The position numbers were made by a program, and so were the translations under genes. A stretch of DNA of 62,324 nucleotides, the filler included, from Jimgerdemannia flammicorona (Eukaryota), in assembly GCA_003990765.1 (NCBI GenBank). It is 3 parts of 3 records of this genome, joined end to end, with 100 filler letters (N's around TTAATTAATTAA, not from the genome) between each part and the next. Parts side by side here need not be neighbours in the genome. Positions count along the whole stretch, not along the records: positions 1 to 20,711 come from RBNJ01001603.1; 2 more parts are not named here. The stretch is one strand, 5' to 3'. This document shows positions 209-29,692 of the stretch, one piece after another (position 1 is the stretch's first letter; each line of letters opens with the position of its first letter). The notes beneath the pieces are model-generated. The model was not told the DNA's origin. It worked only from the letters and a program-made list of their open reading frames with translations, and did not search any database.

Positions 209-2113
209 TTAGTATTCCATGCTCATCTCATCCCCAGTCAGATCTAAGCACTGTTCAGCTTCCAAGTCACCCTCTGCATTAGCCTGAGCATCCAGTGCCT
301 CCAAGATTTCCTGACATTCCACCCCATCCACTACCTCCATCTCCGACTGGTAGTCCATGCAGACTGTGCACCACTTCTCCAGTCTCTTTCTCAAGTTCTA
401 TAAGTAAAATGCCCTGTCACTCGCAATTCTCCTAAGTTTCTCTTCTCTCTGATCATCGACTTGATATTCAACTGACTTCAGGAGAACAGCCAGGATCTCG
501 TTCCTCATCTTCCTCAGTACCTCCTCCCCCCATAAATGCCTCTCTTCCATAACCCTGAAATCCTCTCCTCCCAGCTCTTCCGCCACCACCCCTTCCAGGG
601 TCTTCCACATCCACTTCTCCTCATCCACCACCTCTGCCACACTCTGAATGATTTGTCCCCCATCCACCTCGGGGTCCACTAGTGTGCTCCTCCTCACTGA
701 CTCATCTCACTCCTCATCTGGTACATCCAGCAGCTCCTCCTCCCCCTCAGCTCCACCCAAGACACTATACTGAGGGTATACACCTTTGCTCATTTCCACA
801 TCTGCCTCCATATTGCCTTCCCTCTCCTCCTCCACTCCAATCTGAGCCCCACCCCAGGTCCTTTCGCCCCCCTCAGCCTAGGCACTCTTCTGTAATCCCA
901 CAACCCCCTCCCCTGTACTTTCACTAGCTCCACCCCCACCCAACTTCGCCAGCAGCTCCTTCTGAATTTTCCTCCCCTGCATCTTCTTCCAGGCCCCCCT
1001 CTCCATCCGAACCCTCTTCCCATCCATCTCCCCCACTACTGTTCTGGCCTCAAACTCCTTCCAGGCTAATCTCCTCCTCACAACTGCCCCTTCCAGATCC
1101 TCCAGAGCCTCCAACAGATCTTCCTCCTCCTCCTGGGTCTCCTTCACCCTCATGACCTTGCACTCCACCGGTCCCCACCTCAGTATCGCTAGCCAGTCCC
1201 TCAACTTCCCCATATTCTCCTTCCCAGCCAGCCTCACCCTGATATCAACATCACTAGTCCAAAGCTCCATATCCTCCCAGACCTTGAACCCAACATCCAC
1301 AATCTTTCTATACTCCTTAATCGCCTCTACAACCAACTCCCTAGTCCTCTCCTTTGACACTGTAGGGAGATCCAACACCATCAACTGTGCCACTCAGGGG
1401 TTCCAGTGCATACACCTGGCCATAGGGACCACAACTCTGCCAACTGTCACCCCCTTCTCCAAGGCTGCCAGCAAGGCATCTTCCTCCTCGAACCCCACCT
1501 CAACCCCTTCTTTCTCCTTCAAAAACTTCACTGATACTGCTCCTTTTGCCTCCTATGCCACCAGCCCCAAAATCATCCTTACTGTCACTGCCAAGCCCCA
1601 GAAACACATTGTAACTGCGAATTCTGATCTTGACTTCTTGAGTAATGGGGCTGACACCATGCCTGTCATCCCATCTGCCAGGTCCCCGGGCCTCATGCCC
1701 ACTCTCTGTCCTGAATTATCAACTGCCATCACATCTGGATTTTTTGCCAGATCCCCAGTCACAGCCCCATCAACATTTATATCTCCAGCCCCTACTTCTG
1801 CTCCTCCCCTACCATCCGAAACTCCCCTGGGCACACCTCCCTGTCCCTCAGCAGTAGCTGTCAATGCCTTCCCTAGGCTCAGCCAACTATCCAGACCAGA
1901 GGCCATCTTCCCCATTCTGACCTTGTCAGCAAAGGTCGACCTCTCCCCTTCTCTCTGCCTCAGACCACCCCTCTCTTTACCACCAGGGCCTCGGCTAGCC
2001 ATCGAGGCCCCCAGTATCCCCAAACCATCTCCCCTCCTTCCCACCTGCTGCCAGCCAAAGACACTGCCACTCCCCTGGTCAGTACGCTCACTAGTTCAAT
2101 CATTGCCATCTAT
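209..2113 (-). pseudogene. LINE ORF1 (RRM-like nucleic-acid-binding protein), with stop codons
   Basis: Shares DLADGxxG...PLLKKS.SEF.VT.CF.GLAVTVR, YxxIVDVGF.VWE and P..L.WG with the intact ORF1 at 19398. Confidence 0.85.
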
Positions 2114-2185
2114 GTCAATAGTTGTCAGACACCAAAAATATAGTAAAAAGTGTTGTCTGAGTCTTGTGTCACCTGAATGTTACCA

Positions 2186-2669
2186 GCTCTAAGTTCTTTA
2201 TTATACTAGATAATGTCAGCACTGGTATTTTGATGTAACACTGAATAATGCCAGCACTGGCATTCTGAGGTGATGCGAAATTGTTCCAGCACCAGTATTC
2301 TGATATGATACTGAATTATACCAACATCTTGAACCTATACAACCATCAGTACCGACCCTGGAACTTAGTAGTTTTAGTTATTGAAATTTATATTTAGCTT
2401 ATATCTTAGCAATTATTGAATTATATTTTGTATGAATACCTCTCTTATTTCCTCTGAAATAAAGTCAGTTCTGGTTTCACTTACATATACTTCCTTGCAA
2501 GCAATCTAAGAGATAACAAGACAGTTTAAAGATAAGAAGTTTGAGGACCATAAGACCTTGGGAAGGTACTCCAATAAGAACTTACTTATAACAAACTTGA
2601 GTTAGTCTAAGAGATATATCTTAAAGAGAATCTGGTATATTTGAAGGACTTAGCAATCACTATATGATA
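2186..2669 (+). repeat. 5' LTR of element A (3' part only; cut by LINE copy 1)
   Basis: Matches 9811-10295 with mostly transition differences and ends TGATA (TGACA in the 3' LTR). Contains a ~35-bp tandem repeat (~2203-2330), a degraded TATA and AATAAA. Confidence 0.9.
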
Positions 2670-2725
2670 ACTTGGTGCCCATTGACTGGTGATTCAAGAC
2701 AAATCCCTCACTTTCAAGCTAAAAA

Positions 2726-4039
2726 ATGAACAATCCCACAATAACTACCCTAACTACAAGAGTCACCCCTACAAGAATTCAAGACAAGATGGAAATGTGT
2801 CCCCCCATATTCTATAGATATACTACTAAAGAGTCAATTCTGACCTTTATTGAACAATTCACTGCTATACGAGCCCTTGGTGTAGATGCTCAATTGGCTC
2901 TTCTACCAGTCAGCCTCAGAGGACCTGCTAGAGATAAGTTCAATACAACTACCATTGCTGATGCTGGTATAGCCAAACTTGCCAATATGAAGGCCTTCCT
3001 CAGAACAACATATTATACTGAAGAGATCAAGCAAGCACTCAAGGATCAACTCAATACTATCTGCCAGGAACTTAGTGAAGATCCCAACTCATTCTATATT
3101 TGAATCTGCCACCAGATTATCTTGGCTGACTATGATGACTGTCTCAAGGAACAAATAGCAGATTCAACCTTCCTTAAAGAAGTTCATCTGGAAATTGCCC
3201 TAGCAATCCGGTCTATCCCAGCTGCACTGACTCTTGATCGGAAAGTGGTCTTTGCACAGAGATATTGAACTACCAGACACTCTGCTAAACACTCAATAGA
3301 GAAAATAACTGGCATCAAGATGGAGCCATCAAAGCTAACTAGTATCATACCTGCCACAGTTGTAAACAGACAACTAACCCCACTTACCCCCAAGACATCC
3401 AAAGCTGACCCAGTAGAAGAACTCACCAAGCAGTTCGCTGAGATGACTGCACATCTTGGTGATGTTGTTAGAGAAGTCTGAAGTGCCAACAGGAGACCAG
3501 TGCAGAGATTTGCAGCTGCTACAGAAGAATGTAATATCACATGCTTCAGATGTAGAGAAGAAGGCCACTATGCAAAGAGTTGCATGACCAAAACAAGATG
3601 CAAAGCCCAACTAAGTAATACTAGCAGAACCAGAGAATAAACCAATACAGTAGTCATTGAGGAGATTGGTGACACAGATGATGAAGAATACTATGAGGAG
3701 CTCAAATTCTACCCTGCTACTGAAGGTACTGGAACCCAGTCCAGGCCCTATGACAGAAAGAGCAACAGCAAGCCAGTTGGAAGACCAAAGAAGACCCCAG
3801 CTGTTACTATTCAAAGTAAGACCCAACCCAAGAAGATTGATCAAGATATGGAGTTAGATGAAGCTGCCTACCAAATCATTGAAGACACTACTCCAGTCTC
3901 AGGAGAAAGCGAAAGCAAGAAGGAACAGAAGCTGTACAAGACTAAGATCCATCAGTATGATATCTACAAGGACCTCAAGGAACAGAAGGTCAATGCTACT
4001 TTTGAACAACTAGCTGAAGTCCCTTCCTTTAGACAGTAG
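2726..4039 (+). pseudogene. gag: Gag of element A with CCHC zinc knuckle
   Basis: Capsid-like LRGPARDKF...ICQELSEDPNSFY; CFRCREEGHYAKSC at 3542-3583; in-frame stops. Confidence 0.85.
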
Positions 4040-4169
4040 TTGAGAGTAGGACTTGCAACTACTGCCAATAATCAAGAGTACAAGATTGTAGAAGCTCACA
4101 ATGCACAGGAAGAATCTGAGAACTCAGGTAAAGAATCTGAAGATCAGCGCAAGATATCAGCCTATACCT

Positions 4170-4530
4170 CATATCAGATTGAAGATTATATCTTTGATGC
4201 CATCATTGATACTGGTGCTGGAGGATGCCTTATGAGCAAGAAGACAATTGACCACCTAGGTTGAGAGATTGAAGAGTCCATCAAGATGGTCTATGTTACA
4301 GCAGATGGTACATGAGCTATTCTCCTTGGCAAAATCTGAGAAGTCCCCATCAAGATAGGAGGAGCTACCATCCAGTAGATGTGATTATTATAAGCACTAC
4401 CAACTATGACATCCTCATTAGCAATCAATGGCTTCACAAGGCCAAGGTCATCATTGACCTCAATACCCAGAAGATGCAGATCAACTATAGAGGAAGAAAG
4501 GTATGAGTCTCTATCAATGTCCACAAAGGA
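4170..4530 (+). pseudogene. Aspartic protease of element A
   Basis: AIIDTGAGGCLMS and YDILISNQWL (DILLG..WL-like) motifs. Confidence 0.9.
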
Positions 4531-4869
4531 GTTCTACTAGATATAGAGGAAGGAGATGAAGAGGACACAGAGGTCTTTATGCACTTGGTGAACAAGAACA
4601 AGAACAAGACACCTAAGCTCACAGATGAGCAGTGGTACAACAAGATCATTGATGGCTATACCCCTCAAGGAAGATGCCCCCATGGTACTAGAATATACTG
4701 CTCCAAACACCTGAATGACTGCTGGTCCTGTATCAGTGAAGTCAGGAAAATCCATCAACAGAAACATAAGCAAGAAGCTGCCAAAGCAAAAAGGAAAGCT
4801 GAAGAAAATGACCAGCCCCCAGAGCTTCAGGCTGACAGTGATGATGAGGAGGAACAAGAATCAGATATC

Positions 4870-5290
4870 ACCCTCAAGGTCAAGAAGTTTCACCCTGAAG
4901 CCAAGATCCCAGAATACAAGACTGAAGGAGCCATAGGAATAGACCTTGCCAGCATTCAAGATGCTACTCTCAAACCACAGACCACCACCCTACTTGGTAC
5001 TGGAATTAGAGTCAAGCTGCCAGAGAACCATGCTGGAATCATCAAGACCTGGAGCAGTCTGGCCAAAAGTGAAATCTCAGTTGAAGGAGAAGTAATTGAT
5101 CATGATTATACTGGTGAGATCTTTCTCATAGTCAGAAATCACAACCACACCACCCCCTTTGAGGTCAATAAGCATGACAAGATTGGCCAGATGCTGATCC
5201 ATGAAGTCAAGAAGCCCAAGATCATTGAAGCCATCAAACTCATCAAGACTAAGAGAGGAGAACAAGGCTTTGGATCTACTGGAAGAGGAG
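4870..5290 (+). pseudogene. dut: Trimeric dUTPase domain inside Pol, between protease and RT
   Basis: dUTPase motifs visible in ORF 4579-5925: GAIGIDL, KT(W<R)SSLA, VIDHDYTGEI, KIGQM, RGEQGFGSTG; in frame with RT. Confidence 0.95.
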
Positions 5291-5469
5291 CCTATGCTGC
5301 CATCAAGATTACCAAACTTGAGCATAAGAAAGATAAGGACCAGAATAAGCATACATATACCATTGGAGAAAACTTTCCCCTGGAGGAACAACTTCTCAAG
5401 ATTCTGCACCAGAATAAAAGAGTACTTACTACAGACCTCAGGAATATCTATAATCAAGAACCCAAGTAC

Positions 5470-6760
5470 TACCATGAAGTTGACACTGGTGATACCAAGC
5501 CCATCTACCAGAAAGTCAGACCCATACCACCTGCCTACAGAGAATGGCTGCAAGCAGAACTCAAGGAAATGGAAGAAGCCAGAATCATCAAGCAAGCTAT
5601 CAGCCCCTGGGCCTCACTCATTATCCTTGCCCCGAAGAAAGAAAGCAAGCCTGGAAAGTTTGTGCCAAGACTCTGCATTGACTATAGGAAGCTCAATATC
5701 ATCACCAAGAAGGATAGGCAGCCCTTGCTGAATATTCAAGAAATTCTTACCACTCTTGGAAGTGAAGCTGAATACTACACCACCTTGGATCTATTCTCAG
5801 GCTTCCATCAGATTGGTCTCACTCAAGATGCCAGTGAGAAATCAGCCTTCATCATACCTGATATCACCTATATCTACCTACGAATACCATTTGGAATGTG
5901 CAATACCCCAGCAAGTTTTCAGTAAATGATGAACAGAGTCTTCAGTAATGAGATTGGAAAATGGCTCTTTATCTATGTTGATGATGTGATCATCTTCAGC
6001 AATACTGCATGAGAACATATCAATCACATATAGCTAGTTCTCAAGAAGCTCAAGGAGCATGACCTTTACATCAAGCCCAAGAAATGTAAGTTTGCAGCCC
6101 AGGAAATTGCCTACCTAGGACACCTCATCAACCAGACTGGAATCCACATAGACCTCATGAAGATTGAGGCTGTTGCAGCCTACCTGAGACCCAGAACAAC
6201 TACAGAAGTCCATGCCTTCCTTGGGCTGGTAAGCTACTACAGAAGGTTTATCAAAGGATACTCCAATATTGCAGTAATATCTATGAGCTACTGAAGAAGG
6301 AGACCAAATTTGAATAGACTAAGGAGTACCAAGAAACCTTCAATGAACTCAAGACCAGGTTGACCCAAGCATCTATCTTCAGAAGACCAGATTGGAACCT
6401 AGAATTCATCCTGCAGACAGATGCAAGTGCTATAGGACTTGGAGCAGTCCTAGCTCAGAAGAAAGATGGACATAAATATGTCATCTCTTATGCAAGCTGA
6501 GATATCTGAGGAGCAGAACAGAACTACGAGTCATACAAGCTTGAATGCTTAGCAGTAGTTTGGGCAGTAGACAAGTTCCACTACTACCTAGCTGGGAAAT
6601 ACTTCACTATTCAAATAGACCATTCCACCCTTGCCTGGCTATTTCACACTCTGAACTCCAAAGGAATATATGCCAGATAGATCTACAGACTGTAAGAGTA
6701 TGACTATACTGTCAAGCACTGCTCAGGAAAGACTAATACCAATGCCGATGCACACTCAAG
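5470..6760 (+). pseudogene. pol: Reverse transcriptase + RNase H of element A
   Basis: SPWAS, RLCIDYRKLN, LDLFSGFHQI, PFGMCNTPASF, YVDD (~5974), LQTDAS, LECLAVVWAV. Confidence 0.95.
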
Positions 6761-6795
6761 GACATCCTGAAACACCCCTATCAAGACTATTTAAC

Positions 6796-8410
6796 ATGAA
6801 CAAGGAGCTATACTATGGATTAATCAGCTACCTTGGGCAGCAGAAGATGCCTAACCACCTCGAACCCTAGATAATCACTATCATCAACTGAACTTAGAAA
6901 TGGTTTGAACTAGACAACACTATACTCAGAAAAGGAGGAAAGCTAGTAATACCTGAACTAGTGCTCCCAATGAATCGAATGGAATCAAATTTGGCCCAAA
7001 CTTGATTCGATTTGATTGAATCAAGGGTCCAATTCAATTTGATTCAAATCAAATCAAAGGTCCAATTTGATTCGAAGTTTGATTCAAACCTTAATTTTCA
7101 AAATGTAATAACTTGACGAAAACTCATCCAAATTTAACATATTTTAGCTTGTTAGATTCACTGTATTAATGTGATTATAACAAGCTAAAGTACATTAGAT
7201 TTAGATGAGTTTATGCTGAGTTATTGCATTTTGAAAATTAGTGTGCAAATCAGACCCTCAATTCAATTCAACTTTTGATTTGATTCGAATTGATTCAAAT
7301 TGAAAAATCCCCAATTCGATTTGACTTGTTTAACCCTCAATTCAATTCAATTCAAATTGATTTGACTCATTTGGGAGCACTAACCCAAACATAAGAAGTA
7401 TCAAGTAATGAAGGAAGTATATGAGCAAGGATACTTAGGAGGAACTAATATATATGATAAGGCAAGAAGAACTATGTGGTGGCCCAAGATGGAAGAAGAC
7501 CTATGCCAATTTGTCAAAGGGTGTGACAAGTGCCAAAAACAGAAACAAGATCAGCAAGACCAGGCACCTGGGTCATCAAGAATTGAGTCTATCTCCTTCC
7601 ACCACATCGCAATGGATATCATTAGACCACTACCAGTAACACTATCAGAAAACTACTATATTATAGTTATTATAGACCTCTTTACCAAATGGATAGAGGC
7701 AGAAGCATTACAAGAAGCCAATGCCCTCTCTATAGCCAACTTCTTGTACCAAGAAATCATCTGCCACTATAAGACACCAAATAAATCACAATAGACTGTG
7801 GAATGGAATTTGTCAATGGATTTCACAAGATAATATATCAGAAATACAAGATCCAGCACATCAAGACCACTGCGTACCACCCTCAAGAAAATAGACAGAC
7901 AGAGAGAACTAATAAGACTCTCAAGAACATCTTAGCAAAGATCTCAGAGATATATGAGAATTGGGATAACTATCTCCCAACTGCCCTCTCTGTCCTATGA
8001 GACATATGGTCATAGAGTACACACTTTACCCCAAGAGAGCTGCTCTTCAGAGAAGAAGATTCTGATGAAACCTCAGTTACAAATCTAGACCTAACTTGGA
8101 GATAGATTGATGCAGAAATCTGGAGACTACACCAAATCAGGAAGAAGGCTGAAGATTACATCACCAAGTCACAAGTGCTGATAAGGAAGAATGTGGAAAA
8201 GAATTACAAGACCCTAGAACCCATCTGAATCAGAGAAAAGGTTCTACTATATTGAAATATAGTAAAAGCCTCATGGTCACAAAAACTGAAGTCCAAATGG
8301 GCCTTCTATGTGCAAAATATCAAGAGAACTACCTTCTGATTTAGAAAAATCTCAGAGACTATACTGCCTACTATAGTACACAGGAACAGACTCAAGAAGT
8401 ACCATAAACC
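6796..8410 (+). pseudogene. Integrase of element A, interrupted by a hAT MITE
   Basis: WWPKM..D...FVKGCDKCQ, HIAMDII.PLP, IDLFTKWIEA, TTAYHPQ.N.QTERTNKTLK. Confidence 0.9.
6959..7382. mobile_element. hAT-family MITE (424 bp) with 8-bp TSD
   Basis: TIRs TAGTGCTCCCAAATGA / TCATTTGGGAGCACTA. TSD ACCTGAAC (6951-6958) / ACCCAAAC (7383-7390), both derivable from ACCCGAAC. Removing it restores the integrase frame (VIPEHKKYQVM). Subterminal TTCGA/TTCAA pentamers and a central palindrome. Confidence 0.95.
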
Positions 8411-8472
8411 TATATAAGAGAAGTAAAACATGATGACCACCTGCAAGGTTCTAGTCCACAAATCATAACAGC

Positions 8473-8680
8473 ATGTCCCATGACCAGCAGACTATCTGTC
8501 TGGACCATTCTCTAAGGAATATAGCACTGGCAACTACTCATCTATGAGACTTTCGAAGTCAGAGGAGTTCAAACCATCAACTGATTGGTCAAGATCAGAA
8601 TCAGGTCCTTGCTCTATATGAAGGGAGTGATCCTTCACCATCACACCAAAATACAAAGGGAAGATATCAGCCCATAAACA
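8473..8680 (+). pseudogene. Degraded accessory ORF between integrase and PPT
   Basis: One frame reads IYETFEVRGVQTIN*LVKIRIRSLLYMK with stops explainable by C>T; loosely resembles the LTR-encoded domain. Confidence 0.4.
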
Positions 8681-9085
8681 CCACTTTTCGACCTCTTGCC
8701 AGAGGTTATGGGATAAGTAAATTTTTCAGGACTGGACAATAAATAAGGATGCTTGAGAAGATTCTTATTCAGGAGAAAGATGTAACAGTGATCTCAGAAT
8801 GATGACATCAGCAAAGGAGATAATATTTTCTCACAAGCCACCAGATCAGAGCACAAGACAATCATACAGCATATGAGATGAGTAATGATGACCAACTGTA
8901 AGTCATTGTAACCACAGTACAAGCATCCTGAAGAATATAAAAGAAGAATCAAGAAACTGCAGTAGCAGCAACCAACAAGAACCACCAATCCCAAAATAGC
9001 TCAAAGACTTATCATAAATAAAATATCTGCTGCCTGCTAAATCTCAAGGTCAAGGAATCACTAAGGCATCTCAGTTGAGGAAAGG

Positions 9086-9817
9086 ATGTTCCAAGACATC
9101 AGAAGAGCCATGAGGATCTGCTCAAGAAGGACTCCTAGTATTAACCTGGGTACTGCAGATCCCTATCACTTTATCCTCTACTACTGTGAAATGGAAACAA
9201 GGATCACCATTACTACCAAATGCCTCCAAATGTGGCAGGAGTATGAAATAGGAAACCTCCTCTACCAGGAGTTCTCACAGGCCAGCACTCAAGAGCTACA
9301 AGATGCCACTCTCATAGATATATACGAGACAAGAAAAGCTAAGATCCATCAGATCTTCAGACATGCACTATGGTCGATCCCCAACTTAGAGTATGTTAGA
9401 GTCTCAGATTTCAGAGATCTGTCATCCTGCTGTATCAATGCACTAGAAGCCAGAGTGGCTACAGAAGTCCAGTCCACTATCACCCTCAATAGTGATAAAG
9501 TAGAAGACTTCTGGCACTCCATCCTCCAAGACAACCCAGACCAATTCCTGCAAAGATTGATCTCAGTATTCCAAGGCCCTAGTATCCAGGTTAGACCTCC
9601 CCAAGACCCCACATTTGTTCCTTACTTTGTAGAAGAGAACCTCATAGATTGGAGAGCCCCTGATTTTCCTGCTGAATATGATGACATCATCAGTGATGAC
9701 GTCATCCCATGCAATATTGAAGCATGTGAAAACAACAAATTCACAGATTTTATCTCCTTCAGTAATGATGATGATGATGATGATGAAGCCCCCATGGTCC
9801 TGAACTTTCTGCTCTAA
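9086..9817 (+). CDS. LTR(U3)-encoded hypothetical protein, 243 aa open (original start probably the ATA at 9023)
   Basis: Open ORF inside the LTR. Motif YEIGNLL...KAKIHQIF...IPNL is shared with the ORF in the unrelated solo LTR at 17167. Confidence 0.7.
   Translation: MFQDIRRAMRICSRRTPSINLGTADPYHFILYYCEMETRITITTKCLQMWQEYEIGNLLYQEFSQASTQELQDATLIDIYETRKAKIHQIFRHALWSIPNLEYVRVSDFRDLSSCCINALEARVATEVQSTITLNSDKVEDFWHSILQDNPDQFLQRLISVFQGPSIQVRPPQDPTFVPYFVEENLIDWRAPDFPAEYDDIISDDVIPCNIEACENNKFTDFISFSNDDDDDDEAPMVLNFLL
9682..9704 (+). promoter_or_regulatory. CRE/ATF-like sites in the LTR (TGACATCA and intact TGACGTCA at 9697-9704)
   Basis: Perfect palindromic TGACGTCA plus CpG-decayed copies at ~9682 and ~8803. 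Confidence 0.4.
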
Positions 9818-10295
9818 GTTCTTTGTTATACTGGATAATACCAGCACTGGTATTTTGATGTAACACTGAATAATGCCAGTATTGACATTCTGAGGTGACA
9901 CGAAATTGTTCTAGTATCTGTATTCTGATATGATACTAAATTATACCAGCATTCTGAACCTATACAACCATCAGTGCTGACCCTAGAACTTAGTAGTTTT
10001 AGTTATTGAAATTTATATTTAGCTTTATATCTTAGCAACCATTGAATTATATTTTGTATAAATACCTCTCTTATTTCCTCTGAAATAAAGCCAGTTCTGG
10101 TTTCACTTACACACACTTTCTTGTAAGCAATCTAAGAGATAACAAGACAGTTTAAAGATAAGAAGTTTGAGAATAATAAGATCTTGGGAAGGCACTCCAA
10201 TAAGAACTTGCTTATAACAAACTTGAGTTAGTCTAAGAGATATATCTTAAAGAGAATCTGGTGTATTTGAAGGACTCAGTGACCACTACATGACA

Positions 10296-11800
10296 ATAGA
10301 TAATTATAAAGTTATTCTTAACTTTAAATTTTCTCTAATAATTATCTAAAGATAGCATCAAAGAAGTAGACAGCTTGGGTTCTATTTATAGTCTATTCTT
10401 ATCAGCTATATTTTGCTCTTATAGTATTTAGAGAGATTTCAGTCTTATTGTAGATACTTCAAGATCTTCTTTTCTATTATTATAGAATTATAAATTCTTG
10501 AGCTTAGTTCTGGCTTCAGTAATATAGATAGAGCTGTAGAACTATTAGATGATTAGTTTCTTTAGACCTATAGTAGCTAGATAAGCTTTATAGTTGGGAT
10601 AATTATTATCTTCTTTATTTGTATCAATTTTGATATAGGCTTTTTAAATAAGATAATATACTGATAGGTTGTATCACTACTGAGCAGTTGTGACTATAAA
10701 ATAAGTAATGACTTTCTCTACTTATAAGTCTATAGTTATATAGAGATCTTTAATCTTATAGTACTAATTATTATTAAGAGTATTATCTAGAGTTCAATTA
10801 CTATTCTATTTATTAGTATGATGATCAGTATTAACTTGATCTATAAATATTATTACTTAGTCTACTTTACCTTTAAATAGAATGAAACAGAGACCTTTTG
10901 TAGGTTTATTTATTTTGATACTAAGATAAAGAGCTTAAGTATAGCTACTTAGTTAGCCAGTACTGTTATCTTATTATCAATATTATTCTGCTATCTCTAT
11001 CATCTGTTTGATAAAATAGTTGAAGTCTTTTATTTTATAGTATATTGATTATGGTTTGGATTTAACTCTTTTATAATATTACTGAGATAAATGAGTCTAT
11101 AGACTGATAGTTTTAATAGGTTTGAGTAGTTCTGTAATAATGCTGAAGTTACTAATGTCAGGTTCAAATATCTCTTCAATTATCTTCTTAGATCTAAATA
11201 ATATAGCTGAGGTCTTACTAGAACTTATGGCTTATAGTTTTTATTACTAAATTATTCTCATCTATATATAGAGAATTTAGTAATAGAAGTGAGATTTCTT
11301 TTAATTAGTATAATATCTCTTATAGTTTAGAAAGGCCTTGGCTTTATAATAGTAATTGTTAGAAAGAAGATTCACTTACAGTCTCAATAGATTCTCATAT
11401 ATATTTTTTGTAAAAGTATTTATAAATTAGCTTATGAAATTCTTTCTTAAGTTTAGAAGTATAGAGAACTTCTTTATTAAGTGCAAGAAAGAGTATTGAA
11501 TACTTTTTGAATAGTTTTATTATTAAGTTTGTCAAACTTCTCTTGACTAATGTAGATTTTAGTTTACTTGATAATAATTCTATTAAATTCTACAGCTTGA
11601 GTCTGAGGAGTATTTAGAGTAAAGATATTTTTTGACTATTACTAACAATGTTAACAATATTGACTAGTTTTAATTATCTATAGTAGAATCTTGAGAGAAG
11701 ATTGCTCATAGATGAGAAATAACTTTTACTATTATCAAATTATAATAAATCTATATATGTACTAATAGAATTAATATATTATAGATAATTAATTTTAACT
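10296..11800 (-). pseudogene. Very degraded gag/protease relic of an older LTR element
   Basis: AT-rich. The minus strand gives IIDNKITVLAN (~10960-10990; possibly a decayed protease IIDSG) and gag-like fragments with many stops. Confidence 0.4.
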
Positions 11801-14800
11801 ATCAGCTCTAAGTTCTATACTCTTGAAGAAGTATTGAGTTCCAATTATTTATTATGATAGAGTTTAGATATTACTTTTAGGTTTTTATATAGATGATAAT
11901 ACTATATTTGTATTTCAAGTTGATTAGACTCAGAATTATCAACATCTCTCTCCACTACAATTCACGTTACACACACTTTACAATATACTTTCAAATCGTT
12001 TATTGGAGAAAGATACTAAGGAGATATCAACCAGTAAGCGAGCTGATGCATGTCCTAGGTCAGGTGGACCTGGGGCCTTCAACTGGCAGCATGTTGGGAG
12101 AGGGTATGGACTGGGGATGGGGTCTTTCGGTGGATCGAGTAGACAGGGCAGCTCGGGGGGTAGAGGAGGCACTGGTGGGGGGGCTGGAGGGCAGCAGGGA
12201 GGGAGCTTTGTGGATGCACTTAAGGCTGGGGTTGGCTGAGGGATACCCGCAGTAGACAGGCAGGAGGAAAGGGGAAGCAGAAGGTTGGCGACACTGGGGG
12301 AGCTGAGCCTTCACTGGTGGAAGGTGGGGAGAGTGGAGTAGTGGCTGGGGGTAGTGGCGGGACTACTAATGGTAGTGTGACAGTGAATCAGGAAAAAAAA
12401 AGAGATGTGAGAGCTGATGGCCAGGGGGGGCAGGGGTTCCCGATGCGGAAGGGGGACCTGGCCGATGGTGTAACGGGACTGGCAGTGGCCCTGTTGCTCA
12501 AGAAGTCAATCTCGGAGTTCGTGGCTACCTTGTGCTTCCAGGGCTTGGCGGTGACAGCGAGGATGGTCCTGGGGCTTATCTCGAGGCAGGTGGCTGGTGC
12601 GGTCTCGGTGAAGTTCTTGAAGGGCCTGGAGGGGGTTGAGGTGGGCTTTGAGGAGGCAGACCTACTGGATGAGGCCATGAAGACAGGAGTGATAGTTGGG
12701 GAGGTGGTGGTCCCCATGGTGAGGTGCTTGAGGTGGGACCCCAGGGTGGTGCAGTTTCTGGTGAAGGGGGTGCCCATGGTGACTAGGGAGAAGACTAGGA
12801 GGAGGGTGGAGGAGATGATGGTAGAGTATGGAGACGTGGTGGACATTGGCTTTCAGTTGTGGGAGGGGACAACTATCAGGATGGGCGACGTCGATGTCAG
12901 GATTCAGTTGGCAGGGAAGGAGGCCACAGGGAAGATGAGTGACTGACCCTCGGTACTGATGTGGGGGGCCATCATCTGCAAGGTGTCGAGGGTAAAGGGG
13001 AGCGAAGAGGAGGGCGAAGGCCTGGAGACTGTATGAGGAGTTGATGCATCTGGAGGTTGTGGGCGGGAGGCATATCCATATGGATAAGAAGCAGTAAGAG
13101 TGGGCCCAGGGCCGCAAGAGGCAGAAGGAGCTGTTGGAAAGTATGACAGGTGGGGGGAAGAAGAAGTTGGGTGAAGCTGAGGAGTCTGAAGGTGCTGAGG
13201 CCAGTGTCTGGGCTGGTAAAGGAGGAGAGGAGGTAGAGGCAAAGGAGGCAGGGGCTGGGAAGGGGCTAGACAAGGACCCATTTGCTGATGGTACCTTTGA
13301 AGTATGGGAGCCGGAGTTGGATGCCACCCCCCCCCCACTTATCAGGAGGGGCCCAGTGGGGAAGAGAGGGATGATGGAGGATACACAGATGCAGGGGGCC
13401 CAGCAGGTGCACTTTGGGGTCCCTGATGTAGCTCAAGGGGGTCAGGTGGTGGCGGTTGGCGAGGATGAGCTGGTGGATGTCCCTGAGGAGGAGTGGGATG
13501 AGGCTGCTAGTGTAGGAGCTGACACCACGATGTTGGATGCAGGGCGACCGGGAACTCTGGGAGGGAAGGAGGTGGGGAACTTGTTGTGGGTACGCAAGGT
13601 GATGGATAACCTTGCAGCAGAAGCATTGGGGGAGGTAGACCTGCAGGTGATGCCTGAGGAGCATTGGGCAAGGATCCTGCATGGTGATGGAATGGTAGAG
13701 GCACTGAAGGTGGAGATTCTGGCGATTTTGCTGGAGGAGGAGGGATATGAGGTTGACGAGGTGAGGAAGGCAGAGCTGGGGGTGGTTGCTGGTGAGCAGG
13801 CAGACTACTGTTGGGCAGAGCATCATGGTCTGTGGCTCTGGCAGGAGGCCTGTCTGGAGTATCACAAGGATTTTGAGGAGCATGAGGATGGGGCGATAGT
13901 AGAACTTCTGGGAGAGTTGGAGGCATGGAAAGCTGGGGAGAGGGAACTGGCTACTGAACTTAACTTGGACTTGGTACAGGAGAGGCAGGATGCCGACTTA
14001 TAGAGGATGGGCCCTGATATATATCATTATTCTTTATGAACAGTACAGCCAACATTTTTTCCTTGAATGTGAATGGGCTAAGGGGCTCTGGGTGGTGTAG
14101 GAATATTTTTACTTGGCTCAAGGGATTGGAGGCTGATCTCTTTTTATTGCAGGATGTTCGATGTGAGGATGAGGATGATCAGGTAGAGTGGACTAGGGAA
14201 TGGGGGGGGGGCTGCTACTTGGTTTGGAAAGGTAGCAATTCTGGTGAGGAAGGGCAGAGGAGACTTGGGGGGAATCAGGAGCTGGGGTGATCACTTGGTC
14301 TGGAGAGAGTGGCATCGGCCAGGGTGGGAATTGGTGAAGATGGGCTCTTGCTACTGCCCTGCGGCTAGGGGTGAGAGGACTGCATGGATTAGGGGATTGC
14401 TGGAGGAGGGTATTCTCTTGGAGGAAGGGGTCAATGTTCTCAGTGGGGACTTTAATATAGTTCGGGATCAGCGTCTGGACAGAACTGATGGCGGGAGGAG
14501 TGCTGGGGGTAGAAGTGGAGGTCTGGATGCATGGGAGGAGGTAGAGACATTGAGCTCCTTGGGGAATATGGGCAGAATGAGGTGGGGTGACGCCAGGGTT
14601 TACACGCATTAGGTGAATGGCCTGGGCACAAGAATTGATTGGATTCTGACAGCAGAGTGCTGGGGTTTGGATGTTTGGAAGGCATTGGAAGTGGAGTGGT
14701 GCCCATGGTCTGATCACTGGAGACTGTTGGGACAGGGGCAGTTTGGGGGGAGTGGAGATAGACCTGGACATTGGTGCCTTAACTCCTCCCTGCTGGCTGA

Positions 14801-16989
14801 GAAGGGGCTGTGGGAACTGTGGGTGGAGGACATTCAGGCAAAAGTTTTTATCTGGAAGCATGAGAGTTTGCCTGGGGCTGTTCGCTAGATGAGGTTGAAA
14901 GAGGCTGCGAGGGTTTATTGGGGAGAGGCTGGTAGAGGGGCTGGGAGGCAGAGAAGGAGGTGCACGAGGTGTGCTTCCAGCAGGCTGAGGAGACTACAAA
15001 TAGATTGAGCAGATTTGCTCACCTTAGGATTGGAGGATAGAGAGGGCGAAATTGGAGATAGTGGAACTACAACAGGTGCTGAGGGAAGAGGAGGAGACCC
15101 ATATATGGGGCATGGCTGCTAGGCTGTGGTGGCAGGGGCTTAAGGAGGGTGAGCGGCCTACTAGGTACTTATTGCAACTTCTCAAAGCTAGGAGAGTGCA
15201 TCATCAGTGGGATGGGGTCCTGGATGCTGATGGGGACATGGTTCACGGCACATAGCAAATCCTAGGGGTCTTGAAGGAGAGATGGCAGGGTTTGTGAAGT
15301 GAGGGAGAAGGGGGTGTAGATGAGGCAGAGATTGTGAATACACTAAATGAGTGGGGGCTGCCGCAGGTTGCTGGACTGAGGGACTTGATCTTACCAGTAC
15401 AGGGAGAGGAGATCCAGAGTGTCCTGGCAGCAACTGAGATTGGGATGGCGCCAGGGAAGGATGGATTGCCTTGGGACTTCTGGAAGAAGATGGTAAATGT
15501 CCCCGGGGTGTTGGGCGAGATAGCTGATCTTTGTGACCATGTCCTTCAGAGTGGTGAGTGGGTTGGAGAGCAGGATCTGGGGCTGGTGGCCTTACTGTAT
15601 AAAGACAAGGGAAGGAGGAAAGACTGGAAGAACTGGAGGCCAATTATGCTTCTGGATATGGACAGGAAGATGGTGACTAAGGTGATTGTCGCAAGGCTGC
15701 AGAAGGTTGCCCAACAGGTGCTGGGGGAAGAGCAGAGGGGCTTTGTTGGGGGCAGGCTAATAAGAGATGAGACTGCATGGGTTCATGGTGTCATTGAAGG
15801 GGCCCGGGCCTGTAGACTGGATGGAAGGTTGGTCTTTCTGGACCAGGAGAAGGCCTATGACTGTGTATGGCGGGTGTGGCTGGGAAAGGTGTTGGACCAA
15901 ATTGGTGTTCCCCCAATATTTAGGTCCTCTATGTTGAGTCTGCTGGAAAGTAGTCAGGCAGCTCTGATGTGTAATGGTCACTGTGGGAGGGCATTTCCCT
16001 TGGGAAGAGGAGTACCTCAGAGGGACCCTCTATCTCTGATTCTCTATGCTCTTTCACTGGAGCCATTAATGGATAGGATTCACCAGAAGGTAGCAGGGCT
16101 CTATATATGGTATAGTATGGAAGGTTGGGGCCTTTGCTGATGATATGGTGGTTGGACTTGGGACTGTAGCAGATGTAGAGGCACTTCAGGAGACTGTGGA
16201 ATGGTATGAGGCTCACTTGGGGGCAAAACTCAACTGGCATAAGTGTGAGACAATGGTGCTAGAGAATGAACTAGTGGGTGGGGATATCATTGGAACAATT
16301 GTCCCTACTGGTGAGGTGGTGTGGTATCTGGGTATCTTCTTCTCTATATATGGTTCTGTCTTGCCATAAGTGTGGTGGGAGAGCAGGGTGAATAGTTGGT
16401 GGGAGGCCCTTCGAGGATGGGGAGGCCACCATATCTCTCTAGCAGGGTGGGTGTCAATCCTGAATGTATATTGATTCCCAAAGCTGTGGTATGTGGCATA
16501 TCACCTTGACTTCCCAGTATGGGTGGTGAAGAAGCTGACGAAGGTGGCTAGAGATTGGATTTGGGCAGAGAGGAGGTCCCAGGTCAGTTGGGATACTCTG
16601 GTGAGACCGGTAGTCAGGAGAGGTCTTGGCCTGGTGGATTTCCCTAAGAGGCTGCACTGCTTGAGAGCCTGGTGATTGAAGAGAGCTGTGGAATTGCAGG
16701 GCAAAGGTTGGGTGCCTCTGCTGCAGAAGGTATGGGAGATGCGAACATCCCCTCGAGGGTCCTCCAGAGATCTGCTCTCTTTGGTGGGGCTGAATGGAAT
16801 TCGGAGGCTACGGTTCAGGGGCTTTTAGTGGGGAGTGGCTGATGGAGCACACTGAATTGGCCTGCGCTGGCAAGGTTGTAAGCGCACAACCTCCAAGCCA
16901 TCAAAACAATACATCACCCTCCGAACAAGCCACTGAAATCACACGCGACCTCTAAACAAATCTGGAAATCACTTGCTTAATCATGAAGC

Positions 16990-17095
16990 TGAGTCAAACC
17001 GAAGTCACAGTACACAAAGCTGAGTCAATACGAAGTCACAGAATACAAGATCTATACAAATGGAATCTTACCAATCAGGATCAAATACATATATA
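16990..17095 (+). promoter_or_regulatory. Putative promoter of the LTR cargo ORF
   Basis: Two GCTGAGTCA (AP-1/Gcn4-type) sites in a 31-bp tandem duplication (16990, 17021), CCAAT at 17071 and TATATA at 17090, all upstream of the ATG at 17167. Confidence 0.45.
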
Positions 17096-17166
17096 CCGAG
17101 CACCAAGATGCATCAATTCAGAGAACAAACACACAAACAACAACCACAACTTCCAAACACACAAAT

Positions 17167-18264
17167 ATGACCACTGAGATCTATACCCGCATCTGCGCTG
17201 ACATTTGGAATACCATTGTCAACCGAGCCACACCCCCTCTGCCCCTCATGAATATCCATAGCCTAGCACTCCTTCTCCTTCATAGAAGCCCATTGGAATG
17301 CTCTGAACATGCTTAGTGAGGCCCACCGAATCGGACAAATCTCAAGCTACTACCAGATTGGCCACCTCCTGGAAGACATGGTCGAACACCACCATGATAT
17401 AGACATTACCGAGATATCTCAACACCAGAAGCTCATTGCCCACAAACATCGAGAACTTTTCTATGAGTATAGTACCATTATTCCCTGCCTCTAAGTTACT
17501 ACCAGCGAAATGGTTGCTACTCTGTTCTATGGCCAAATCGATGATATGATACAAGAACTCAACCACAAGTACCTTGAGTATGTCGAAACCACAGACAGAA
17601 CCTTCCCACACCCCAACGATCATATCCTGCAAATGCCCCAAGTTGGATATGCCATGAAGGATATCAACGATATAATTCACTTCAATGAAGATGAAGCAGA
17701 AGACAATGATCCCTCCGATGCCAACATGACCTCTAGCCAAGGATCTCTGCCAACCCTGATCACTCTGCCAACCTTGCCGATGAACTTACAACAGTTTATA
17801 ACTGCATACGAGACTTATTGGGACAATGACCACTGGCACGAATACCAACCCATGTTTACCCCTAATTACTTCAACTACAATGAAGAGACCGGAGAACACA
17901 ACCTGTACCTCCAGACAACCCTCGAGATCGAATCAACCACTCCACCACCTGAGTACAAGTGACATGAACCACAACCACCAGCTTACTACAATCCTGCAAC
18001 TCATAGTGCTGTAACCTATAGAAGGTATACAGATAGTGAATCCAATGAAAGTGAAGATAATATACCCATCCTTCGTCCACCAACACCTTATCCAGCCTAT
18101 GAGACAGATGATGCTATCCTGTAGGATGGAGATAAAGTTCCAATATATTATTACCTTAGCGAACAAGGAGAAGTAATCTGCGAACCACTCTTTCTGGACG
18201 ACTACTTCATCAGAGATGATGCAATTGATGGTGATGTCATCAAGGACTACCCAGACAGTGCCTA
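17167..18264 (+). pseudogene. LTR(U3)-encoded hypothetical protein (~365 aa; one frameshift, three stops)
   Basis: MTTEIYTRIC... with a +1 frameshift near 17275 (absent from the copy at ~31003), then QISSYYQIGHLL...AHKHRELF...IIPCL*...; the frame continues through TGA/TAG to DVIKDYPDSA*. Confidence 0.75.
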
Positions 18265-18328
18265 AACCCATAAATAGCCTAGCAGTCATAGTGTAGTTAG
18301 ATTAGCCTTATATGACATGACTGTAAAC

Positions 18329-18583
18329 TGACTCAGCAGTCAGATGATCTCTTGACATATCAGATCACACTTGTACTACGTGACTGTATTCTGACTCAGC
18401 AAGATACTTAGTGCTACATCCATATTCAGCATAGCCCAGATAGCCCCTCACTAGTATAAATACCCCCTCCCCCAGACCTCAGAATCTCAGACTCGAACAT
18501 ACAAGAACATTCCTGAATACTTTCCCACAATATCCCTTTACACAACTACTCCTAGTATAGCAATATCATGAATAGCGAATAAA
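18329..18583 (+). promoter_or_regulatory. Canonical LTR promoter and polyA signal
   Basis: TGACTCAGCA at 18329 and 18392, TATAAATA 18455-18462, AATAAA 18578-18583. Confidence 0.6.
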
Positions 18584-19313
18584 CCTATTTAATAACCCAC
18601 AAACCACTCTTAAGTAAATCTACTCCCTGTTAGGTCCTACTCCTAACTCCCTTATGAAATTTCCTAATTGGGTATTGTCTGCAATTCAACTAAGCTGGTC
18701 TTAGTTTCTTGAACTTCCTGAAATATGGAAAATCCTGAACATCCAGAACTAGTCTGAAAAAGGACTTTGGTTGAGACATCAACCCGATCTTGAAATCAAT
18801 AAGCATAGAGGATATACTCTATATGAAATTGATCTTGACCATAAGAAAATGGTCTTCTAGAATATCCAGAACTTCCAGAAAACCCCTCCAGAACTACGTA
18901 ACAGTTATCATAAAAAGCAACCCTCTTACAAAGATAATGAGGGGGAGGCGGCGTGGGGGCCTAATATGTGATACTGGGATAGACTGCTCCTGGGGAGCAC
19001 TCCACTGACTGTGTTCGATATTGGGGAGGGAGTGGAGTGTCAGCAGGGGCTTGGCCAGGATCTTTGGCCAGGTGGCTGGCAGGCGGTTGAAATCGGAGAG
19101 GAGTGGGACTGGGCGGGCATCTGGTCTTGGAGTGCAGAGGTATGAAGATGGCTTCCTCCCAAGTTCTGGGTGGTATGGTGGTGAATGTTGTAGAGGAATA
19201 TCATGCTGAATTTCCACTTAGAGCATTTAGTAGAGGGTGGACAATTCGATTGTGAGGAGTATTATGATGTTGGGTAAGCTGGGGGTCATGTACAGATATC
19301 AGAACATTGGCAA

Positions 19314-20711: not shown

Positions 20712-20811
20712 NNNNNNNNNNNNNNNNNNNNNNNNNNNNNNNNNNNNNNNNNNNNTTAATTAATTAANNNNNNNNNNNNNNNNNNNNNNNNNNNNNNNNN
20801 NNNNNNNNNNN
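20712..20811. other. Artificial contig-joining spacer (N-TTAATTAATTAA-N)
   Basis: Identical 100-bp construct at 41522-41621; the 12-mer puts stops in all six frames. Confidence 0.95.
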
Positions 20812-27059: not shown

Positions 27060-29692
27060 GATTATTTATTAATAGCAGTTCTTTTACTAATGACTCTCTC
27101 TTTTTCTTTTAACTGAAGTAAATATATAACAGAAGAGATCCTTTGATATATTTATCTAGACTTTAGCTAGAACCTTGTGGCAGTATATAGTTTTTCTGAT
27201 ATATTTCAATTATAACTTACTTGGCTTCCTCAATGTAGTACTGCTCCCAGCTCTGATCATTGTGGTAATGTAGCTTTAAGTATAGATCCAATACTATTTT
27301 GAGAAAAAGAGTAAGTTTTGTAAGAGTTTTACTTTTTTTAGAAGGGGTATCTGCTATACTAATATATCTGTACTAATTGAGTATATAGTGGCATCTGTTT
27401 TGGAGTAGTATTTTCTAAGCTTGCTCAGAGCAACCTCTATAGTATCTCTCTGATCTAGGCTAAACTGAAAATTATCACTACCCTCTAGTCTTTTCTTGAG
27501 CTTATTCTCTAATTGATCAATCAAAAGATTATATACCAGTATTGCCAAGCTTATTGTTGAGGTAGTTTTTTTGACTATATTCTTTATATAATTATTAAAA
27601 CACTAATAGTTAAGAATGATGAATTGTTAAATTATTATATAGAGATAAACAAAATAAATATAGAGCCAAAGCAATTATCACTTACTTCTAAAACTCTGAA
27701 AACATTCCTTAGTACATCCTACTTACTTTTATCAATAGCCTTACCCCATATTTCCTTGTCAGTAGTAATTGTGAAATCTATTGGCTTTTTGGTTTTTTTT
27801 TGAAAAAAAAATTTATTTTGAAATTAATTAATAATTCTCAGTTATCTAAAACAATTTGCTTTAGTCAACTGAAAAAAGAGTATATACTATATCAAACTTT
27901 AGTGCATACTGGATCATTTCAAATATTGAGTTCTAATATATATAAATATCTAATATCAGCTCTTTTAGGACTAAGCTAATTGCTCTATACTGTATAGCAA
28001 ATTTGTCTCATCATTGTAGAGATGATCAGACCAACACAATCAGTTTGTATAGCTGGAAACAATACTCAGAGTTTCTTTACTTCCAGATATTTTGTCTACA
28101 TATATATGATAATCATAAATAGTAAGGTTTAGTATATGGGTCTGATAATAATACAACAGTTTTCTATACTGAAGACCACATTTTCCTGTTAAAGGCTAAT
28201 TGCTAAATTTTGAAAAAATTGTTAAGTTGTTTGTAATATTATCCATCATAATGGTCAAAATCTGTACTTGAAATTTTTAGTTAATAAATTTATATAAAAA
28301 TAAATAATTATTAAAATTTGTTTTATTTTAAGACTTCTCTCAAAATGCTGACCAGATAGAAAGCCTCCTCTTTTTATCTTAATTATGATCCCAAGCTCTC
28401 AGATATAACTAATAAAAACATCTATAATGTTTTTTCCAGAATAAGGATCAGTGAGCTTGATAAAGTTAAGAGTAAGAGATTTAAGTTACCAATTGAGATT
28501 AATTCAATAACTAGTAATACTTAAAAATAAAATTATATTAGAGAATATCCATATATCAATTATAAATAAAATTCTGCTTACTGAATTCTATTTATTGAAT
28601 GTGAGATTAAATTGATGAGCTCTTTATATATATATATATGTAATTTAGCTTGCAATAGTTATAGTATTACTCTTATTTATTTATTTTATCTAAAGTATCT
28701 AGTGATGATCATCATACTCCTTCCTATAGACCACTAGGATATCTTTACAAATAGTATCAGTACTTGGCAGATATAAATTATGCTTGAGGAGGCCAAAGAT
28801 ACTATGTAATTGATCACTCTTAATGGTTGTGAATGATTGGTCTATGTATATATATAATCTAGTGAGTAAGTTGATTTCAAAATTCTGCTAAAAAATATAG
28901 CTAAATATTTTTGATTAAATGGGGTTATTGATATAGAAATAGTCAGGTAATTAGATAAATATATCCACTATAGCTTAAATATCAATTTTATTTATTTTTA
29001 TATTCTTTTTGATTTTGTCAAAGTATTTGTCTTTTATATATTGATATATATATATTCAAAGTTGAACTACTAAGCATTTTAAACTTCTAGCTAGATAGTA
29101 TAAAGAGGTTAATAGAAATAATATTATATATATATTAAACAAAAAAATTAGTTATATTATAAATATATTTTCTTTTTTTAATTTTTTATCTATAATAATT
29201 AAATATAATATCATCTCCAGTCATTATCAGATTTCAGAATGAGAATTGTATAGAAAGTGTAGAACTATTAAGGATATTTGACTTGAAGCATCATTGATAC
29301 TATGAACTATTGAAGACTAATCTGTCAATATGTATATTTGTATATTTATATATATGTTTATATATATATATGTGTTTATATATATGTGAACATTTCTAGC
29401 ATATGAGTCATATAGAGGATTTGTCAGATTGATGGATTTAGATTAGATAATTTGAATTGGATAATTCAGATTGAATAATTCAGATTGAGTAGTTCAGATT
29501 GAGTGATTTGGATTAAGTGATTCAGATTTAGTGATTCAGATTGAGTAATTCAGATTGAGTAGTTTGGATGGAGTGATTTGGATAGAGTGATTCAGATAGA
29601 GTAATTCAGATTAATTTTGATTATTTTAGATTTATGATTTGAGTCAAACCATTATATGACAAATTGAATCAATCAACTTATTTGGAGCACTA
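27060..29692 (-). mobile_element. hAT DNA transposon relic (spliced transposase remnants, subterminal repeats, one TIR)
   Basis: *NSIFEMIQYAL (RWNST-like, ~27900-27940), TISLAILVYNLLIDQLE and ALSKLRKYYSKTD..YSIST. TIR TTTGGAGCACTA at 29681-29692 is nearly identical to the MITE TIR. Confidence 0.8.
29425..29615. repeat. 15-bp tandem array (GATTGAGTGATTCAG-like), hAT subterminal repeats
   Basis: About a dozen degenerate units without spacers, ~70 bp from the TIR. Confidence 0.85.

Follow-up and report, generated by a model that had tools for sequence, protein, structure and literature searches.

Can a retrotransposon's long terminal repeat (LTR) hold a gene of its own? Retrotransposon LTRs are treated as non-coding regulatory DNA and are masked by annotation pipelines, while accessory genes in, or overlapping, the U3 region of the 3' LTR are known from retroviruses, as sag of mouse mammary tumour virus (MMTV), nef of the human and simian immunodeficiency viruses (HIV/SIV) and bel/bet of the foamy viruses, the last with an internal promoter. 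The question is raised by a stretch of 62,324 nt from Jimgerdemannia flammicorona (NCBI GenBank assembly GCA_003990765.1), hereafter the window, which joins three parts of three records of the assembly (positions 1 to 20,711 come from RBNJ01001603.1), with runs of N at 20712-20811 and 41522-41621. A reading of the sequence alone had proposed that two Ty3/gypsy families in it, the dUTPase-bearing gypsy A and the chromovirus-like C, carry homologous open reading frames (ORF A and ORF C), each with its own promoter, in the U3 of their LTRs. The follow-up reported here places ORF C inside an LTR and finds in ORF A a gene under purifying selection; on balance we favour, with a confidence somewhat above even, the reading that two related dUTPase-bearing Ty3/gypsy lineages carry an accessory gene downstream of the polypurine tract (PPT), in U3. 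An ORF downstream of the PPT is part of U3, so that both LTRs, and every solo LTR of that subfamily, receive a copy of it. The coordinates of all features are collected in Table 1.

For family C the answer is plain. Its LTR opens with TGTAAG at 16877, closes with CTTACA at 18930 and interrupts a copy of a long interspersed nuclear element (LINE), and the insertion site is uninterrupted in two paralogous LINE copies of the window, at 61544/61596 and ~37250. Contigs of three runs were compared with the window (X1, a soil metagenome, at a likeness of at least 80%, X2 and X3), and their joints skip the LTR, from 16875/16876 to 18935/18937 in X1 and X2 (2059-2060 nt skipped) and from 16875 to 18939 in X3 (2063 nt skipped). 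At both ends it agrees with the 3' LTR of the window's full-length C element (16875-16926 with 54149-54098, and 18452-18935 with 53337-52821), the first 52 nt being the sequence right after the PPT AAGAAGGGGAGAG of that element, and no direct repeats were seen when they were looked for inside the LTR. The TG..CA termini, the target-site duplication (TSD; AAGGT/AAGAT) and the empty sites confirm the proposed TSD-bounded solo LTR: positions 16877-18930 are a genuine Ty3/gypsy solo LTR with an ORF inside it, and the 366-codon ORF C therefore sits within an LTR. The layout described for it was also recovered by direct reading, with TATATA at 17090, 77 nt upstream of the ATG of ORF C (17167-18264), followed by a second TATA and AATAAA. 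A relative from outside the window (P0009) retains an intact C-terminal part of 247 aa with 63% identity to ORF C.

The cassette is not, however, common to all LTRs of the family, which weighs against a general form of the proposal. The 1329-bp 3' LTR of the full-length C element shares with the solo LTR its first ~50 nt, its last ~540 nt and the final ~20 codons of ORF C, but the body of the ORF is absent, with ~660 unrelated bases in its place, and a purine/pyrimidine-coded diagonal scan, which removes transition decay, agrees. ORF-bearing and ORF-less C LTR variants therefore coexist. The claim that every solo LTR leaves a self-contained expression cassette was thus too broad, given this LTR and the decay of both ORF copies read.

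ORF A can be judged by its relatives, and these show a real protein-coding gene under purifying selection. The codon alignments of three DNA copies gave ratios of non-synonymous to synonymous substitution (dN/dS) of 0.16-0.20, 0.12-0.13 and 0.05-0.22 for the three pairs, ratios that are rough because dS is saturated at 1.7-10, and dN, at 0.34-0.77, lies far below dS throughout. None of these values (0.05-0.22) is near 1, in agreement with the sequence-only reading. The family has at least three sublineages with 27-85% identity, and at 27-45% identity the frames are still full-length (247-342 aa). The protein is not evenly conserved: close relatives hardly vary over residues 120-193 of the window ORF A protein. 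All six family sequences that reach the N-terminus start with MP[AP]x[RTC], of which 9023-9085 in the window is the decayed counterpart; despite two stops, the codons of this segment match the N-terminus of the relative P0004.

These relatives are few. ORF A relatives made up 6 of 143 candidates at E<=0.01, the ORF A profile had five matches at E<=0.001 among 1.84 billion representatives, all of them unnamed metagenome proteins, and a broader profile found 12 of 4133 candidates at E<=1 in a 5.8-billion set, which lends no support to the abundant Glomeromycota orphan domain with which the motif had been compared. A first metagenome scan (query A2) had no relatives among its 379 pattern matches, and a later one (A7) yielded, among 134 pattern matches in contigs of JGI metagenomes, two short DNA loci whose ORFs, of 323 and 291 aa, are intact. 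For five of the ORF A clusters 12 members were listed, all from JGI/IMG or ENA, with 'hypothetical protein' or nothing as source name. A likeness to HECT-domain proteins in the ESM Atlas (0.89-0.90, with 145-153 shared features and a low recognition of 1817) was taken as chance and rejected; the dUTPase-reverse transcriptase (RT) query returned only dUTPase clusters there, labelled viral.

The elements that host the two ORFs are closer to one another than had been supposed. They had been called unrelated gypsy families, yet in both the dUTPase lies between protease (PR) and RT, and tblastx segments in the pol reading direction show 29-37% identity between their pol products. Their LTRs had been said to lack DNA similarity, yet an exact 11-mer, GTATAAATACC, occurs at the second TATA of both, and both begin with PPT-T(T)GTAA, a start common to A, C and a fourth gypsy family, D. 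With up to one mismatch the 11-mer has six matches in the window against 1.39 expected, a number reached by 0 of 100 shuffles, and all six (10056, 2430, 18454, 53335, 31493 and 48951) lie in LTRs, as core promoters of A (two), C (two), D and a further element, E. Its presence in four gypsy families reflects either shared promoter ancestry or convergence on a host-preferred TATA/initiator.

Whether the A and C genes themselves come from one ancestral cassette is harder to decide. The evidence is suggestive, and we would give a common origin an even chance. With the same weight we consider that the two ORFs are unrelated, each lineage having captured or evolved its own U3 gene, and that the shared motifs and acidic tails arose by chance or convergence. 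Several results count against kinship and for separate origins: BLASTP of A against C gave E 0.62; the A-family profile, run over the six-frame window with hmmsearch, placed the N-terminal region of C third among its matches, at an independent E value (i-E) of 13; the hhalign probability was only 1-3%; and neither A-family profile search of the protein collections returned any C-family protein. H88, Q89 and H93, invariant in the A family, correspond to R, E and E in C, and the C protein is ~120 residues longer, with a middle that has no counterpart in A. On the other hand, the motifs quoted by the sequence-only reading are present, and all five hhalign runs found the same register, 68-99 colinear columns at an equal distance from the N-terminus (A ~17-122, C ~26-125). 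The P value against C fell from 0.052 for a 9-row A profile to 0.017 for a 16-row profile, that is, as the A profile gained diversity. Against a cleaned C alignment, an 11-row profile scored 20.1 (P 0.062-0.064; 4 of 200 column shuffles reach the score) and the 16-row profile 21.8 (P 0.048; 1 of 162). The proposed alignment of the two proteins therefore holds in its motifs and register but remains borderline as a profile match, and with P at 0.017-0.064 its significance was neither secured nor refuted. The acidic tails, by contrast, were found as described: the last 70 residues have a net charge of -8 to -17 in all nine proteins tested, and the motif RDD[VAI]..D[VL]I occurs in the tails of both A and C proteins. 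These tails, the same position in U3 with a TATA equally far upstream, and the dUTPase, PPT-TGTAA start and second-TATA 11-mer shared by the host elements also speak against unrelated genes.

The second matter that bears on the favoured reading is where LTR A starts. All the features proposed for A (PPT, TGTAACA at 8781, TATA at 8936, ORF at 9023-9817, second TATA and AATAAA) were found by direct reading. However, only 486 bp of the proposed LTR are demonstrably repeated in the window (2186-2670 with 9811-10296, 91%), with no second copy of 8781-9810, and a 1.5-kb LTR A is for that reason a deduction. ORF A could then be an ordinary internal extra ORF between pol and a short LTR of ~440-486 bp, with family C alone having an LTR ORF; the homology upstream of the short 5' LTR would in that case come from tandem elements sharing one LTR. 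We regard this as unlikely, although repeat finding does return a start at ~9811-9824, where the sequence-only reading had placed the short LTR that would overturn its claim. The left boundary of the repeat, 2185/2186, reads as a LINE junction and not as an LTR end: to its left, 2005-2055 matches 19500-19456, the LINE 5' starts at 11946 and 19319 predict an end near 2192, and the minus-strand LINE 5' end at 2185 can be aligned to those of three other copies, ~6 nt short of them.

Other signs point in the same direction. No polypurine tract was found on direct reading before 9811, 9823 or 9858, the only PPT followed by TG being that at 8771-8782, just after the stop (8740-8742) that ends the pol frame of gypsy A. 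The long form opens with TGTAACAGTG and closes with ATGACA at 10290-10295, whereas a 486-bp LTR would start without TG and has no TSD (TACCA on the left, ATAGA on the right), with flanks as unlike as GC-rich LINE (0.52) and AT-rich DNA (0.25). The 5' copy moreover matches 12-47 nt upstream of the candidate starts 9823 and 9858, and the short form would need both a tandem array and a LINE landing at most 47 nt from the LTR start. An independent but soft sign is the summed contig depth in X1, which is not to be equated with copy number (an explicit warning of the method): it is 454-583 in eight of nine internal bins of gypsy A, 123 in the ninth, and 918 and 757 over 8672-10005, and that over the undisputed parts of LTR A scales to a calculated ~800-880. 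The step up therefore falls at ~8700-9000 and not at 9811, depth over the ORF being LTR-like and not pol-like. Depth in X2 is noisier and shows no clear pattern, with 10.7-26.4 in internal bins, 39.3 and 25.1 in the ORF bins and ~15-21 in the LTR parts. Taking together the PPT/TG start, the pol stop, the missing TSD of the short form and the X1 depth against the 486-bp repeat, we consider it likely that LTR A is the long form of 1515 bp, starting at 8781. In the simplest history a LINE would have inserted into the 1515-bp 5' LTR, and the other 1030 bp would lie beyond that LINE, outside the window. As a separate observation, a single X1 contig runs from sequence resembling 2154-2183 (the LINE 5' end) across 12 foreign letters into 9125, within ORF A, which could reflect a further LINE-into-LTR junction or a 30-nt match by chance.

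The best argument for an internal ORF comes from outside the window. In L002, a relative of A at 40-45% identity, a good PPT, AAGGAGGGAGGA, and TTGTAATAAG directly follow the ORF stop, and the TTGTTATAC of A at 9822 aligns with this post-ORF PPT and LTR start; TGTTAT at 9823 is also a better partner for the LTR end (TGTCAT in reverse complement) than TGTAAC at 8781, and a second LTR-start-like motif stands at 9857. In the L002 lineage the ORF may thus be internal and not within the LTR. In the window itself neither ORF A nor ORF C is followed by a PPT and LTR start, and the internal or LTR state of the ORF may differ between lineages. Both sides of the L002 ORF bear a 33-nt repeat (82% identical), the upstream copy of which can be aligned to the PPT and LTR start of D, A and C; over its first 49 nt L002 agrees with the spacer of element D between pol and PPT. 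The duplications are short, 13 nt in A and 33 nt in L002, which tells against leaning on them; as a lead only, they hint at an ORF cassette with a PPT/LTR-start motif on either side. They also suggest that the PPT used for plus-strand priming decides whether the ORF is internal or in U3, and that the downstream tract was lost in A. The duplicated motifs around the ORF in A and L002 would then record a shift of the priming site that turned an internal ORF into an LTR ORF.

That the ORFs are mere passengers lacking their own promoter, captured fragments of host genes or chance frames in long LTRs, is very improbable, because damage to both window copies, the lack of a known domain match and the bias of protein databases, which hold only still-open frames, towards intact copies are outweighed by dN/dS of 0.05-0.22 with dN of 0.34-0.77 over three pairs, by full-length frames of 247-342 aa at 27-45% identity, by uneven conservation along the protein and by a conserved start codon context and upstream TATA.

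Returning to an accessory gene in U3, the promoter motifs are compatible with its separate expression. The putative TATA box TATAAAAG lies 87 nt upstream of the ORF start in window A, 65 nt in L001 and 80 nt in L002, which represent three sublineages. In LTR C, TGASTCA sites form one pair 60-125 nt before each of the two TATA boxes; the window as a whole has 13 such sites against 13.5 expected, which is chance level, but 4 of the 13 fall in this 2-kb LTR. A two-module layout with a separate promoter for the ORF fits these motifs. The order in U3 would be the LTR start with enhancer-like repeats, the first TATA, the ORF, repeated enhancer or LTR-start motifs and the second TATA, followed by R with AATAAA and by U5, so that two promoter modules would stand in series within U3. 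An mRNA would start after the first TATA and end at the poly(A) site of the LTR itself, and an undecayed ORF-bearing solo LTR would then be a complete gene. A broader scheme may be sketched, although we hold it as tentative and rather doubtful: an env-less Ty3/gypsy clade with a layout like that of complex retroviruses, in which the product of a TATA-driven U3 gene would feed back on duplicated LTR enhancers, cassette-bearing LTRs would seed a gene family born from transposable elements (TEs), and an upstream shift of the priming site would have moved the ORF into the LTR.

What the protein might do is the weakest step. In five of seven A-family proteins the net charge of the first 40 residues is +5 to +8, and an AlphaFold2 model of A, although weak, shows a helical core and a disordered tail, with a hairpin around the invariant PQDP..PYF..IxWR block; both models made were poor, at a predicted local distance difference test score (pLDDT) of 42 with 9 rows and of 52.6 with 16 rows, the latter with a predicted template modelling score (pTM) of 0.41. 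This shape, together with the repeated enhancer-like motifs before both TATA boxes, leads us to raise, as a rather unlikely guess, a nuclear regulator of the element's own expression, be it a transactivator or an anti-silencing factor. Foamy-virus Tas, a regulator made from an internal promoter, offers the analogy, and the acidic-tailed ORF protein could be a regulator likewise. Against any such assignment, no Pfam family was found in nine ORF proteins, a profile search of the PDB gave no match at E<=1, and Foldseek with the weak model, against the PDB only, reached a best E of 1.4 and had nothing at E<=0.001, so that the fold check proposed by the sequence-only reading came back empty. Nor did Pfam, the PDB profile search or Foldseek reveal kinship to sag, nef, Tas or Bet by sequence or fold.

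Compared with the retroviral U3 genes, the arrangement is alike in that the ORF lies downstream of the PPT (by structure in C, probably in A) and is duplicated into both LTRs, and in a possible second promoter upstream of the accessory gene, as the TATA motifs suggest; it differs in that the host is an env-less Ty3/gypsy element and that solo LTRs carry the whole ORF. Extra ORFs are known in many Ty3/gypsy elements. Fungal chromoviruses are described, in the accessible part of one study, with an 'add. ORF' and a dUTPase between PR and RT (Novikova et al. 2010, PMC2864245), Ogre elements, in the portion of the source available, with one or two extra internal ORFs and LTRs of 1.9-6.5 kb, the same portion noting a dUTPase between PR and RT for planarian, fungal and rotifer elements (PMC6431247), and bdelloid elements, again from a partial text, as capturing ORFs (PMC5408684). 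To the extent that these excerpts reach, the likeness lies in a lineage-specific ORF of no assigned function added 3' of gag-pol and in the dUTPase between PR and RT, and the difference from Ogre in that its extra ORFs are internal, while here the ORF comes after the PPT, inside the LTR, as shown for C and proposed for A. Within the open literature, with subscription papers and Repbase outside the scope, our searches turned up no description of an env-less LTR retrotransposon with a conserved gene in its LTR, only of retroviral LTR ORFs. If the reading is true, solo LTRs usually counted as dead could be complete genes, and LTRs may be the source of 'orphan' proteins in repeat-rich genomes. An accessory gene in U3, a design regarded as typical of complex retroviruses, would also have arisen, or pre-existed, in env-less gypsy elements, and relocation of the PPT would be a simple route from internal ORF to LTR ORF, testable by comparison of lineages.

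Table 1. Features of the window discussed in the text (positions along the whole stretch; PBS, primer-binding site)
Feature	Position	Strand	Remarks
LINE copy	1-2185	-	blastn to other LINE copies; nearly complete 5' end adjoins the gypsy A 5' LTR remnant
Gypsy A 5' LTR remnant	2186-2669	+	corresponds to 9811-10295 of the 3' LTR; 91% identity over 486 bp
Gypsy A internal region	2670-8780	+	
PBS-like TGGTGCCCATTGACTGG	2673-2689		after the 5' LTR remnant
Gag-like ORF of gypsy A	2726-3103		
dUTPase and RT of gypsy A	4579-5925		Pfam dUTPase 1.8e-25, RVT_1 5.1e-10
Integrase of gypsy A	7384-8742		Pfam Integrase_H2C2 3.1e-12
PPT AGGAGAAAGA of gypsy A	8771-8780	+	TGTAACA directly after; aligns with PPT/LTR start of C and D
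Proposed full 3' LTR A (1515 bp, TGT...ACA)	8781-10295	+	partner in the window for the last 486 bp only
First TATA of A, TATAAAAG	8936-8943	+	87 nt before the ancestral ORF A start
ORF A	9023-9817	+	intact 243 aa from ATG 9086; first 21 codons with two stops from C-to-T decay
Second copy of LTR-start motif, GATGTAACACTGA	9857-9869	+	compare GATGTAACAGTGA at 8779; 40 nt past the ORF stop, without PPT; short, weak evidence
Second TATA of A, GTATAAATACC, and AATAAA	10056-10066; 10084-10089	+	putative LTR core promoter and poly(A) signal
LINE copy	~11946-19311		split by solo LTR C
Left TSD of solo LTR C, AAGGT	16872-16876		
Solo LTR, family C (2054 bp, TG..CA)	16877-18930	+	inserted in a LINE copy
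Two TGAGTCA sites	16990-17027	+	starts 16990 and 17021; upstream of the first TATA of C
ORF C, pseudogene, 366 codons	17167-18264	+	one frameshift near 17275; in-frame stops 17492, 17960, 18122
Two TGACTCA sites	18329-18398	+	starts 18329 and 18392; upstream of the second TATA of C
Second TATA of C, GTATAAATACC, and AATAAA	18454-18464; 18578-18583	+	
Right TSD of solo LTR C, AAGAT	18931-18935		4/5 identical to the left TSD
LINE copy	19319 onwards		
Third ORF C fragment, ~52 codons	29681-29851	-	
Second C-type LTR, AT-decayed, truncated	30746-31342	+	N-terminal 116 codons of ORF C, 8 stops
LINE copy	~32287-37940		
3' LTR (1329 bp) of full-length C element	52821-54149	-	directly after PPT AAGAAGGGGAGAG
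Full-length decayed C element	52821-61070	-	chromovirus-like
LINE copy	61073 onwards		

Beyond the copies in Table 1, a search of the six-frame window with the A and C profiles found no further copies of either ORF. The internal region of gypsy A showed two peculiarities in the contigs. Four X1 contigs skip ~432 nt of it (6950-7391), with joints at 6950-7383, 6955-7388 and 6957-7391, and the X1 depth of the bin 6671-7337 is 123 against ~470 in the neighbouring bins; the pattern resembles an insertion confined to this copy or subfamily, within the RNase H/integrase region. Contigs of X2 and X3 that agree with gypsy A over its PBS and leader, from ~2652-2669 onwards, carry other sequence upstream. 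Internal regions of this kind thus seem to occur with more than one LTR type, a sign that subfamilies may have swapped LTRs.

Two further gypsy elements lie in the window. Element D, the fourth gypsy family (31329-32331, minus strand), has a chromodomain ORF (32331-32098), a 290-nt spacer and then the PPT AAGGAGAGAGAGA with TGTAACAATT at 31810-31797, followed by a U3 of ~300 nt. It resembles A and C in its PPT-TGTAAC start and GTATAAATA core promoter and differs from them in its short U3, in which no ORF was found, and so exemplifies an LTR without the cassette. A second D-type LTR (52175-52640, plus strand), 88% identical, adjoins the end of element C. Element E, on the minus strand, has 1297-bp LTRs at 42866-44162 and 47767-49043, which are 84% identical and ~3.6 kb apart, and its TATA-like motifs 100-280 nt from the LTR start imply an unusually long R/U5 of ~1 kb; no long frame common to both LTRs was found.

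The composition of the window is that of a eukaryotic repeat graveyard, with LINE copies and several Ty3/gypsy elements in an AT-rich background whose poorest bins have a GC of 0.24-0.26. At least four copies of one GC-rich LINE are present, two of them head to tail, the 3' end of one at ~19311 and the 5' start of the next directly at 19319. When the window is compared with X1 contigs, transitions (A>G 583, T>C 643, C>T 464, G>A 467) far outnumber transversions, each type of which counts 17-92, and the window copy of ORF A has Arg-to-Cys changes relative to its relatives; for these reasons the window copies are taken to be old and decayed. In the second and third C copies and the full-length C element (28000-32000 and 50000-60000) GC is 0.24-0.36, compared with 0.47-0.48 in relatives, and these AT-rich TE copies show His-to-Tyr changes and many new TAA/TAG stops. 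The data indicate that selected TE copies underwent heavy C-to-T/G-to-A decay, which could be driven by methylation or by a process like repeat-induced point mutation (RIP). In the AT-rich DNA beside the third ORF C fragment there is also a tandem array (29410-29619) of ~15 copies of a 14-nt unit resembling TCAGATTGAGTAAT.

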